Below the pieces are notes generated by a model, which searched no databases, had not been told where the DNA came from, and saw nothing but the letters and a program-made list of their open reading frames with translations. Both the position numbers and the translations under genes were made by a program. Source: a candidate division WWE3 bacterium RIFCSPLOWO2_01_FULL_39_13 (GTDB taxonomy: Bacteria; Patescibacteriota; WWE3; 2-01-FULL-39-13). Taken from it: a DNA stretch of 51,843 nt. The stretch spans positions 1 through 51,843 of the forward strand of contig MEVH01000022.1 of assembly GCA_001772665.1 (NCBI GenBank). Direction: 5' to 3'. Shown here piece by piece: positions 6,548 through 38,490 of the stretch (position 1 is its first letter; each line of letters opens with the position of its first letter).

Positions 6548-8530
<1,983 letters not shown>

Positions 8531-22570: not shown

Positions 22571-23677
22571 TCAGAAACTGGTTAATACAATGGATACCGG
22601 TGTTCGAAAAAACTGCTGATTATAACCAAGATTCTGATCGAGGTCATTGACGTGTATTACTTTCTTAATTCTCAGCGTCTCGGCAAGACGGACTACAGTA
22701 ACCTGTTCAGGATCTTTCGCCACGACTGTGTTTTCTAAGAAATCTACAAAGGAGTTGTCTGTTTCAAGCACCGCGCCTCCGAGGTTTAGAACAACACGAG
22801 CCCCCCACTGGGCAAGGCCAGGCACTTTCGGATCCTTCGAGGCATTAACAATAAAAACCTTTACAGCTTCTTTCTTTACTTCTGAAATACTCAGCCTCTC
22901 GCGCCACAAATTATCCCATTTGCTGGGATCAAGAAGCTGATATTTTGTAAGATCCATCACATAAGAGGATGACTGAGACGTTCTTTTAACAAACTTTATT
23001 ATGTCAGCAATATCTGCTGCCTTCAGATTGGTCAGGGCAATTTCGCGAAAAGTAATTATCAGCTTTGGGATCTTAAATGTATTTCTCAAACGCAAAGCAG
23101 TTGAAAGGTCTGTTTCATCTATGTCTCTAATAATTTCATATATTTCCGCCATTCCAGTGTTGTCTGCAATTATGTATCCATCGACATCCACCGCCAAAAG
23201 CCGAAGGATCGTCTTTCTCATCAAATAAATCCCGCGGTCATCGTCAAGATTTCCGGTTTTATATATGTCAGACAGCGGTCCTTCTCCGTAATTCAATGCA
23301 TATTCTATCGGAACGTCAACCGGAATATGATATACCGCATATCTGTTTGTATCTGGGCTGAAGTTTATAAGTGAAAGTTTTACAATCCTAGATGATTTGT
23401 CATTAATATCGTCAACCTTTATAAGAAGGATATTTGTCTCATAAGATTTCCACACCCTTCCGGTGTCATCTATATCAACATTTGCTACACTGGAAAAAGG
23501 AGCTTTGACAAATTTATAAATTAAAACGGCAGATAAAATCAGGGAGGTAAATAAAATTGAAACGAGACTCAATGCCACTATCCTTGCTTTACGTTTGGTA
23601 TTAGGATATCTGCGCTTTATTTTTTTATTTACTTTTCTCTGTAGACGTGTATAGCCCGCCGTCCCTCTTTTAGGCAT
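22571..23677 (-). CDS. LytR-CpsA-Psr (LCP)-like envelope protein with a LytR_C-like C-terminus
   Basis: An N-terminal TM anchor is followed by NILLIKVDD...SLINFSPDTNRYAVYHIPVDV, which has an LCP-like layout. The C-terminal part KVFIVNASK...GLAQWGARVV resembles LytR_C. Conservation of the catalytic residues is uncertain. Confidence 0.55.
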   Translation of the reverse strand: MPKRGTAGYTRLQRKVNKKIKRRYPNTKRKARIVALSLVSILFTSLILSAVLIYKFVKAPFSSVANVDIDDTGRVWKSYETNILLIKVDDINDKSSRIVKLSLINFSPDTNRYAVYHIPVDVPIEYALNYGEGPLSDIYKTGNLDDDRGIYLMRKTILRLLAVDVDGYIIADNTGMAEIYEIIRDIDETDLSTALRLRNTFKIPKLIITFREIALTNLKAADIADIIKFVKRTSQSSSYVMDLTKYQLLDPSKWDNLWRERLSISEVKKEAVKVFIVNASKDPKVPGLAQWGARVVLNLGGAVLETDNSFVDFLENTVVAKDPEQVTVVRLAETLRIKKVIHVNDLDQNLGYNQQFFRTPVSIVLTSF

Positions 23678-23746
23678 TTTTATATAAAAGCCCTGCCCGT
23701 TTAACCTTTTCTAACATCATATCAGAATATAACTGATATGGACAAT

Positions 23747-23923
23747 ATCAACTACCGCGAGCTTACCATGCCAGAGGCAGGCACAGCGCACGCGGTATGC
23801 TGTAGCGTCGCTTCGTTCCTTGCATTCCCACCTTCGGTGGAAAAGTAGCGTCACTTCGTTCCTTGCATTCCCACCTTCGGTGGAAAAGTAATGCTCGCTT
23901 TGCGAGTTTTATGGCTCAAATCC
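23747..23923 (+). repeat. Modular hairpin element, copy R1 (scaffold plus two 43-nt tandem units plus a terminator-like hairpin)
   Basis: The scaffold ATCAACTACCGCGAGCTTAC...CGCGGTATGCTGTA is followed by 43-mers at 23805-23847 and 23848-23890. Then comes ATGCTCGCTTTGCGAGTTTTATGGCTCAAATCC. Near-identical modules occur at 34204-34273 and 38322-38490. Confidence 0.85.
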
Positions 23924-23980
23924 TCCTGAGGCGGACGAGGACGCAAGTTGGCAGAATCCATAAGAAAATCGTCTTCCCTA

Positions 23981-31051: not shown

Positions 31052-31159
31052 CATTTCAGTTAAGTGCAAATATTTATACTTTACTGAGGTGTTTAATTTG
31101 ACAAGCAGTTGATAGTCCAATATACTCATTTCAGTTAAGTGCAAATATGTACACTTTAC
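31052..31159 (+). promoter_or_regulatory. Two 33-bp direct repeats bracketing the abiEi promoter (operator-like)
   Basis: CATTTCAGTTAAGTGCAAATATTTATACTTTAC is at 31052-31084. CATTTCAGTTAAGTGCAAATATGTACACTTTAC is at 31127-31159. They match at 31 of 33 positions. The second copy covers the abiEi ATG. Confidence 0.6.
31098..31126 (+). promoter_or_regulatory. Sigma70-type promoter of the abiE operon
   Basis: TTGACA (31098-31103), a 17-nt spacer, then TATACT (31121-31126). This lies 20 nt upstream of the ATG. Confidence 0.5.
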
Positions 31160-31773
31160 CGAAACCGATTCAGGTGCGGGAAGAGTTACTTAAACGAAAA
31201 CTAAGGATCTTTAGCGCAGGTGAATTTATGGATGCCTTTAATACAACACCTTACCCAGCAAAGTACTTTTTAGAAACCCAAGTCCAACAGGGTCTTCTTG
31301 CGAGGTTAAAACGAGGAATCTATACTCTTAAAACTGACATGCCTTCTGAGGAGGAAATTGCCAATACAATCTATAAACCATCCTATATTTCATTTGAATA
31401 TGCACTTGCTCATTACCACCTGCTTCCTGAAATGCCATATGTTGTTACCTCGGCAACAACAAAACCCACACGACTGTTTACAACAACAAGCTCCTCGTTT
31501 TCTTATAGAACAATTAAAAGGGAAGCATATACCGGTTACGCTTTAGTAAGACAAGATCAAAAATCATTTCTAATAGCCGACAAAGAAAAGGCATTAATTG
31601 ATTATTTATATTTCTTTATACTTCAGAAATGTCCCGAAAATGAGCGCCTGTTTAAGAATTTGAGAAACAAAAGTTTTTATAAAACAGAGGATCTAAACAG
31701 GAGAAAAATCACTGCATACGCAAGATTATTTAAAAACGAGCGCCTATTAAATTTAATCAACCAATTCAGATGA
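31147..31773 (+). CDS. abiEi: AbiEi-family antitoxin (type IV toxin-antitoxin system)
   Basis: 208 aa. The N-terminal winged-HTH-like region contains GLLARLKRGIYTL. It overlaps the downstream nucleotidyltransferase gene by ATGA. Confidence 0.8.
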   Translation: MYTLPKPIQVREELLKRKLRIFSAGEFMDAFNTTPYPAKYFLETQVQQGLLARLKRGIYTLKTDMPSEEEIANTIYKPSYISFEYALAHYHLLPEMPYVVTSATTKPTRLFTTTSSSFSYRTIKREAYTGYALVRQDQKSFLIADKEKALIDYLYFFILQKCPENERLFKNLRNKSFYKTEDLNRRKITAYARLFKNERLLNLINQFR

Positions 31774-34078: not shown

Positions 34079-34204
34079 ATGAAGAAGCAACTTAAACTGC
34101 CAAAATTTAAAAACGAAGACGAAGAAAGAGAATTCTGGGCAAATATTGATATACCTTATCAATCTTTAATTAAGAGCTATTTGAAAGAGGCGGTTTTTAA
34201 ATAA
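34079..34204 (+). CDS. 41-aa BrnA/CopG-like antitoxin remnant (internally deleted)
   Basis: It reads MKKQLKLPKFKNEDEEREFWANID joined directly to IPYQSLIKSYLKEAVFK. These are the N- and C-terminal signatures of BrnA-type antitoxins, without the middle part. No partner toxin is present. Confidence 0.4.
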   Translation: MKKQLKLPKFKNEDEEREFWANIDIPYQSLIKSYLKEAVFK

Positions 34205-34273
34205 TCAACTACCGCGAGCTTACGCACGCGGTATGCTGTAATGCTCGCTTCGCGAGTTTTATGGTTCAAATCC
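34204..34273 (+). repeat. Modular hairpin element, copy R2 (minimal 70-nt form)
   Basis: The sequence is ATCAACTACCGCGAGCTTACGCACGCGGTATGCTGTAATGCTCGCTTCGCGAGTTTTATGGTTCAAATCC. It has the same scaffold as R1 and R3, but lacks the 20-nt loop insert and the 43-nt units. Confidence 0.85.
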
Positions 34274-34322
34274 CTCGACATTACGGTCGGGGTATTTCGC
34301 TCGCATTATAAGAAGTCTGCTA

Positions 34323-38321: not shown

Positions 38322-38490
38322 ATCAACTACCGCGAGCTTACCATGCCAGAGGCAGGCACAGCACACGCGGTATGCTGTAGCGTCACTTCGTTCCTTGCAT
38401 TCCCACCTTCGGTGGAAAAGTAGCGTCACTTCGTTCCTTGCATTCCCACCTTCGGTGGAAAAGTAGCGTCACTTCGTTCCTTGCATTCCC
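38322..38490 (+). repeat. Modular hairpin element, copy R3 (scaffold plus 2.6 copies of the 43-nt unit; terminator module absent)
   Basis: The scaffold is 38322-38379. The 43-mers are at 38380-38422 and 38423-38465, with a partial unit at 38466-38490. The unit is GCGTCACTTCGTTCCTTGCATTCCCACCTTCGGTGGAAAAGTA. Confidence 0.85.

Follow-up and report, generated by a model that had tools for sequence, protein, structure and literature searches.

Insertion sequences of the IS200/IS605 family move by single-strand 'peel and paste', with their top strand biased to the lagging-strand template (PMC5027513). PATEs are ends-only derivatives of such elements that are moved by a trans-acting TnpA (PMC7290912); they have been described in Haloquadratum walsbyi (PMC3119063), and a PATE-like element is known from Halanaerobium (PMC7290912). 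A search of a paper collection for Patescibacteria combined with IS200 or MITEs returned no report. Here we analyse a 51,843-nt stretch of DNA (the window; part of contig C22) from a WWE3 bacterium, a CPR member whose genome assembly (G000) has a size of 801 kb, 39% GC, 31 contigs and 93% completeness. The repeats found in this window very probably represent a non-autonomous IS200/IS605-family element, that is, a PATE or MITE without inverted repeats.

An earlier reading of the window made from the sequence alone had described three modular, hairpin-built, intergenic copies in one orientation, and all three were located where it had placed them and with the modules it had named. The copies (R1 to R3) and their parts are as follows.

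23747..23923, active strand is the window minus strand: R1, truncated copy (motif and BLAST scans, alignment, covariance model)
23747-23752 of the plus strand: right end (RE) of R1 with its GTTGAT tip
23767-23787: 21-nt loop insert in the RE hairpin of R1
23805-23847 and 23848-23890: the two 43-nt units of R1
23891-23923: internal hairpin module (HP2) of R1
34204..34307, minus strand: R2, complete minimal element of 104 nt (covariance model, 126 bits, E 2e-26)
34204-34240: RE tip and RE hairpin of R2
34241-34273: HP2 of R2
34274-34307: left-end (LE) hairpin CCTCGACATTACGGTCGGGG and LE tip ...GCTCGCATT of R2
34308..34311, minus strand: target-site bases of R2, ATAA on the plus strand and TTAT on the top strand
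38322..38490, minus strand: R3, truncated copy (motif and BLAST scans, alignment), beginning with RE tip and RE hairpin
38342-38362: 21-nt loop insert in the RE hairpin of R3
38380-38465: the two full 43-nt units of R3
38466-38490: partial third 43-nt unit of R3

The head module (ATCAACTACCGCGAGCTTAC in the orientation of the earlier reading) is as described, as is GCACGCGGTATGCTGTA followed by the 43-nt unit in 0, 2 or 2.6 copies, the unit occurring five times within the window. The optional insert CATGCCAGAGGCAGGCACAGC is present but has a length of 21 nt rather than 20, and the ATGCTCGCTTYGCGAGTTTTATGGYTCAAATCC module is indeed restricted to R1 and R2 but is internal, not terminal. Complete copies do not end at ...CAAATCC, as had been thought, but go on with CTCGACCTTACGGTCGGGGTATTTCGCTCGCATT and then ATAA; R2 therefore extends to 34307, with its ATAA target at 34308-34311, and placing its end at 34273 had missed the last 38 nt. 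The target of R2 lies directly 5' of its left end and has a C as the fifth base (CTTAT). R1 is without the LE hairpin and the TTTAT target, and R3 is without HP2, the LE hairpin and the target; with the left end gone, both are probably immobile. R1 and R3 share 99% identity over 144 nt, a similarity far above chance, and chance most likely accounts for a further, weak match found in the window (8344-8364, 76%).

Several neighbouring features of the window are recorded here in their own right. A short ORF resembling a BrnA/CopG antitoxin (34079-34203) adjoins R2, its TAA stop ending one base ahead of the right-end tip. At R1, the right-end tip (GTTGAT plus A) forms an outward-facing -35-like TTGATA (window 23716-23751, minus strand) that is 16 nt from TATTCT and points toward a 368-aa gene (22571-23677); hybrid promoters often arise at IS ends. 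Furthermore, a 36-nt direct repeat (31052-31087 and 31127-31162; 92% identity, 75 nt apart) is situated just upstream of the ORF at 31147-31773 and overlaps its start, and the repeat may represent an operator or other regulatory site that is present twice.

Counting genome-wide, as the earlier reading had proposed, motif and BLAST scans recovered 17 loci on 11 contigs and both strands, all of them intergenic with ordinary housekeeping genes as neighbours, and the near identity of copies with unrelated flanks seen in the window was borne out within the genome. One copy contains a run of N (C25:6098-6135), so that the repeat is found at an assembly gap. With a covariance model seeded with copies of this genome and of Woesebacteria and WWE3 MAGs, the family was detected in 16 of 134 genomes of the same class, with a patchy distribution and usually in multiple copies. 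The near-complete 885-kb genome G101 has 68 copies by BLAST (~0.9% of its DNA), which are 74-93% identical to the query copy, compared with 94-100% among the copies of the 801-kb genome, and G010 has 15 copies compared with none in its congener G006; the copies in G101 and G010 may be relics. Synteny between G010 and G006 is kept at two loci, where the intergenic divergence is too great for a clean empty site or exact borders. An exact-pattern scan of reference genomes matched Woesebacteria and WWE3 MAGs only, plus one Balneolaceae match that has no further features of the element and is read as chance. In G011 (C24, ~32.28 kb; L002/L049), a short form of the element lies ~12 nt past the apparent 3' end of a 23S rRNA, as judged by eye, and adjoins a strong 39-nt hairpin.

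In the tnpA-carrying relatives discussed below, the hairpin loops read GTAA on the tnpA-coding strand, so that the top strand of the element corresponds to the reverse complement of the orientation used in the earlier reading. On this top strand, the element starts after the target TTTAT with AATGCGAGCGAAATA, the LE hairpin (CCCCGACC GTAA GGTCGAGG) and HP2, and continues with 0 to 3 tandem 43-nt units, GCATTACAGCATA, the RE hairpin (CCGCGTGC GTAA GCTCGCGG, with a T.T mismatch and, in some copies, the 21-nt loop insert) and TAGTTGAT. Read in the opposite direction, the order begins with ATCAAC and hairpin HP1, which has a TTAC loop and, at the third position from it, an A.A mismatch. After TTGCTG come the 5' arm of a long-range stem (P2), the small hairpin HP2 and HP3, a hairpin that resembles HP1 and shares its TTAC loop; the last parts are TTTTAAG, the 3' arm of P2 and ATTATAA. 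Family-wide, both subterminal hairpins (LE and RE) have GTAA loops on the top strand and are thus in direct orientation, and both helices covary. As internal cargo, the 43-nt units and the 21-nt RE-loop insert are specific to the lineage and vary from copy to copy; in G123, another insert occupies this position of the RE loop.

The borders of the element could be drawn from its insertion sites. In 61 copies of G101, the five bases 5' of LE read T(58/61)-T-T-A-T, and the flank beyond RE is unconserved. Four head-to-tail dimers in the same genome show a direct junction of GTTGAT with AATTTC, at which the GTTGAT of the preceding copy serves as the target, and contig C31 of the 801-kb genome has the same kind of junction. 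Therefore, the element proper is AAT...GTTGAT, with TTTAT as the sequence 3' of which it inserts and a right tip (TTGAT) that itself mimics this target. Neither terminal inverted repeats nor a target duplication were found in the flanks of the 17 copies here and the 61 in G101, and the sole remainder in the duplication check is a 2-nt AT ambiguity at an ORF insertion in G047. In that genome, a 56-nt minimal copy is located inside an ORF, and deleting these 56 nt restores a 112-aa frame, across whose junction weak ASCH/DUF3850 matches extend; judged at the sequence level, this ORF-interrupting copy is direct evidence of an insertion event. MITE-like mobility, which the earlier reading had named as an outcome that would speak against its own proposal, was essentially found, although without the target-site duplications it had expected to accompany it. 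The surrounding locus (L060, G047:C12, ~17.2-18.6 kb) has, within 1.5 kb, two adjacent but different IS200 copies as well as the mini-element in the ASCH-like ORF, and looks like a small insertion hot spot.

The ends of the element are homologous to those of tnpA-carrying IS200 elements. The IS200-type tnpA at L060 (147 aa, full PF01797 match) is bounded by the hairpins CCACGTAC GTAA GTGCGTGG, a close match to the mini-element hairpins of G010, and the LE of the second IS in G047 closely matches the G010 mini-element LE. Similarly, the RE of an IS in G081 (L130) is almost identical to the G010 mini-element RE. The RE of an IS in G103 (L120; ACCGGCTGCGTAAGCTGCCGGTAGTTCAT) agrees with the element RE (ACCGCGTGCGTAAGCTCGCGGTAGTTGAT) at 32 of 41 aligned positions by our own count (alignment A3), and four of the differences are compensatory stem changes. 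When metagenome contigs were scanned with GCGTAAGCTNNCGGTAGTTSAT, the matches fell into two groups: those ending in GAT are mini-elements, and those ending in CAT are mostly full IS with tnpA directly upstream and several per contig. The full IS have the layout TTTAT^AGTTCC..AAAAA-CCACCAGC GTAA GCTGGTGG...tnpA...CCGGCTGC GTAA GCTGCCGG TAGTTCAT^ (carets mark the cut sites). Their left ends read TTTAT^AGTTCCTAACTAAAAA-CCACCAGC GTAA GCTGGTGG or begin with TTCAT^, compared with TTAT^AATGCGAGCGAAATA-CCCCGACC GTAA GGTCGAGG in the mini-element. In both IS and mini-element, the cut site is ~15-17 nt from the hairpin at LE and 6-8 nt at RE, and a long left and short right distance is also the arrangement in IS608. 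In addition, three metagenome contigs (L136, L155, L171) contain solo, perfectly palindromic IS right ends (ATGAACTACCGGC..GCCGGTAGTTCAT) without tnpA, possibly a second type of derivative from this IS clade that consists of the hairpin alone.

A transposase of the related IS200 clade co-occurs with the mini-element in five genomes (Fisher p = 0.013), a modest class-wide association. The right ends of the relatives with tnpA are TTCAT or TTCAC, a full-length IS ending in GTTGAT was not recovered, and neither a cognate autonomous copy nor a matching transposase was found in the 93%-complete 801-kb genome. Its sole Y1 gene is a truncated IS200-type tnpA at a contig end (C14:40300-40748; ~95 aa, with the reading frame lost ahead of the catalytic Tyr region) with the preceding hairpin CCTCCAGC TTCA GCTGGAGG. 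This gene was rejected as the parent, as its hairpin differs and it reached only E = 0.6-0.7 with the covariance model; the IS200 copies of G113 and G011, whose hairpins are unrelated, were also rejected. No PF01797 match at all was found in G101 and G010, the genomes with 68 and 15 copies.

Small, numerous, intergenic and palindromic copies could also be REP-like palindromes that are spread and maintained by a domesticated single-copy Y1 (RAYT) instead of a true IS, and many genomes of the class have possible RAYT-like genes, open frames of 180-260 aa that match PF01797 in part. However, with at least 104 nt, distinct LE and RE, and loops pointing the same way, the element is neither a single 20-40-nt palindrome nor an inverted REPIN doublet, and it has a defined one-sided TTTAT target. 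The low number of related tnpA genes in G047 and G103 would fit a RAYT, but the related TnpA are of ordinary IS200 size (147 aa, full PF01797) and their IS are multi-copy in metagenome contigs. Moreover, no Y1 gene flanked by inverted copies was found, and the copy-rich genomes G101 and G010 are those that lack a PF01797 match, which makes a REP/RAYT system very unlikely.

The sequence-only reading had instead proposed a family of small RNA genes, each with its own promoter and encoding a two- to four-hairpin RNA that ends at a CTCGC/GCGAG hairpin and a T-run. The copies do fold far better than shuffled sequences on both strands (z = -5.6 for plus, -6.0 for minus), and all helices covary. The covariance model and compensatory-change test, which had been suggested as a check, gave compensatory changes at all 28 modelled base pairs, with 93% of cells paired compared with 30-49% in slid controls and the observed covariation values reached by 0 of 500 shuffles; these counts lean toward the model because the alignment was fitted to it. 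P2, in which the LE tip pairs with the segment 5' of the RE hairpin, also covaries, and its variants are plain in the raw sequences (TAATGC/GCATTA, TAATTCCTTGC/GCAAGGAATTA and TTATCGCCAA/TTGGCGATAA). One conserved P2 pair is G.T on the bottom strand and hence C.A on the proposed top strand, which counts against the IS200/IS605 explanation. Paired stems are expected equally for single-stranded DNA substrates and for RNA, and hairpin covariation does not favour a transcript.

The orientation of the copies follows the replication strand rather than transcription. In G101, the copies switch strand with the GC skew, with the top strand on the G-rich strand in 56 of 68 copies (p = 6e-8) and the orientation of the earlier reading correspondingly on the C-rich strand; where gene direction and GC skew are discordant, 11 of 12 copies follow the skew. 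The 801-kb genome has the top strand on the G-rich strand in 15 of 17 copies (p = 0.002), the two exceptions being one degenerate copy and one at near-zero skew, and 10 of the 12 copies between co-directional genes are antisense to those genes. A negative skew in their region of the window accounts for the common orientation of R1 to R3. The G-rich strand is taken here as the lagging-strand template, and an orientation that tracks replication argues for a replication-linked DNA mechanism over a transcription-linked one.

The signals that had suggested transcription did not hold either. The '-10-like hexamers' are part of the unconserved flank, and none scored promoter-like ahead of the copies on the plus strand. 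HP2 in R2 was flagged as terminator-like, but such sites are no commoner than in shuffled sequences, and the claimed terminal terminator is an internal hairpin. Rfam returned only tRNAs and noise, both at gathering score for the whole window and at a relaxed E-value for R1, and a tRNA-like reading of GGTTCAAATCC was discarded as no matching T-stem was seen by eye. Small RNAs are known from IS200 ends in Salmonella. Yet with ends homologous to transposon ends, one copy disrupting an ORF, and near-identical copies within the genome between unrelated flanks, a small RNA gene family is highly improbable. The least credible explanation is a BOX-, Correia- or ERIC-like MITE for which a DDE transposase provides mobility, or else a repeat with a function for the host only (e.g. 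an mRNA stabiliser). The copies are intergenic and their head-variable tandem unit-tail layout recalls the A-Bn-C arrangement of pneumococcal BOX, but terminal inverted repeats and target-site duplication are absent and neither replication-strand bias nor IS200-end homology is expected for DDE-mobilised MITEs.

For the non-autonomous IS200/IS605-family element, four independent features (the strand of tnpA, the geometry of the ends, the one-sided target, and the position of the top strand on the G-rich strand) agree with 'peel and paste'. While the anatomy, end homology, target site, orientation bias and covariation are results of the analysis, the enzymatic steps and the identity of the TnpA responsible are inferred. 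A Y1/HUH TnpA, supplied in trans, would bind both subterminal hairpins on the single-stranded lagging-strand template and would cleave on the 3' side of TTTAT (left) and of GTTGAT (right). The top strand would then leave as a circle and be pasted 3' of another TTTAT. Such a mechanism would account for the absence of inverted repeats and duplications, the one-sided flank, the head-to-tail dimers, and the replication-linked orientation.

A more far-reaching possibility combines two proposals and is, taken jointly, rather unlikely: in genomes with many copies and no detectable Y1 (G101), the element may be spread or kept up by something other than a resident IS200, and P2 may hold both cleavage sites together. 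For the former, a TnpA may be delivered by a phage, by a plasmid or by the organism that hosts the episymbionts, or the strand-oriented ssDNA hairpins may be put to use by the bacterium itself. Concerning the latter, the covarying P2 links the LE tip, together with the final bases of the target, to the stretch just 5' of the RE hairpin, which may represent an undescribed bridging of cleavage sites in a minimal substrate.

Identifying the element removes a false small RNA lead and explains the shared orientation in the window by the replication strand. It also reveals an IS200-derived mini-transposon with a wide but patchy distribution among CPR genomes of <1 Mb, of whose DNA it can make up as much as ~1%. 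Repeats of this type interrupt assemblies and are able to disrupt genes; in fragmented MAGs, they can mark the direction of replication. Furthermore, a 104-nt, strongly covarying element would be a convenient minimal substrate for studies of single-strand 'peel and paste'.

Among the known systems, pneumococcal BOX elements have a modular A-Bn-C structure with variable internal units of ~45 nt and a strong predicted secondary structure, and their ends are mutually complementary (TIR-like). The modular layout with variable internal units and the strong predicted folding are shared with the element described here, but there is no sequence similarity, and no link of BOX to IS200 ends or the replication strand is known. 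Like the element, REP/BIME sequences and their RAYTs comprise small, abundant extragenic palindromes linked to Y1/HUH enzymes (PMC3733652). In contrast to the element, with its distinct LE and RE in direct orientation and its defined target, each REP is one palindrome of 20-40 nt tagged with GTAG or CGTC, and an arrangement as inverted doublets is frequent.

The resemblance to IS608 and ISDra2 is closer, and their targets are TTAC and TTGAT, respectively, compared with TTTAT here. Shared features are the one-sided tetra- or pentanucleotide target 5' of LE, the hairpins on one strand only, the longer distance between cut and hairpin at LE than at RE, and the bias of the top strand to the lagging-strand template (PMC5027513, PMC3597680). 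The element differs from both in being without tnpA or tnpB and in its hairpins (GTAA loop, T.T or A.A mismatch third from the loop), and its cleavage sites are deduced from the sequence. Finally, PATEs resemble it in being short and non-coding, with subterminal palindromes only, no inverted repeats or duplication, and a TnpA presumed to act in trans. Compared with PATEs, the element resides in a CPR (Microgenomatia-type) host, is very compact (104 nt in its minimal form), is abundant in genomes without detectable tnpA, and has a covarying P2, a variable array of 43-nt units, and an RE-loop insert. The element represents a family that is new within an already known type of mobile DNA; it is selfish DNA with an ordinary mechanism and is useful for annotation.
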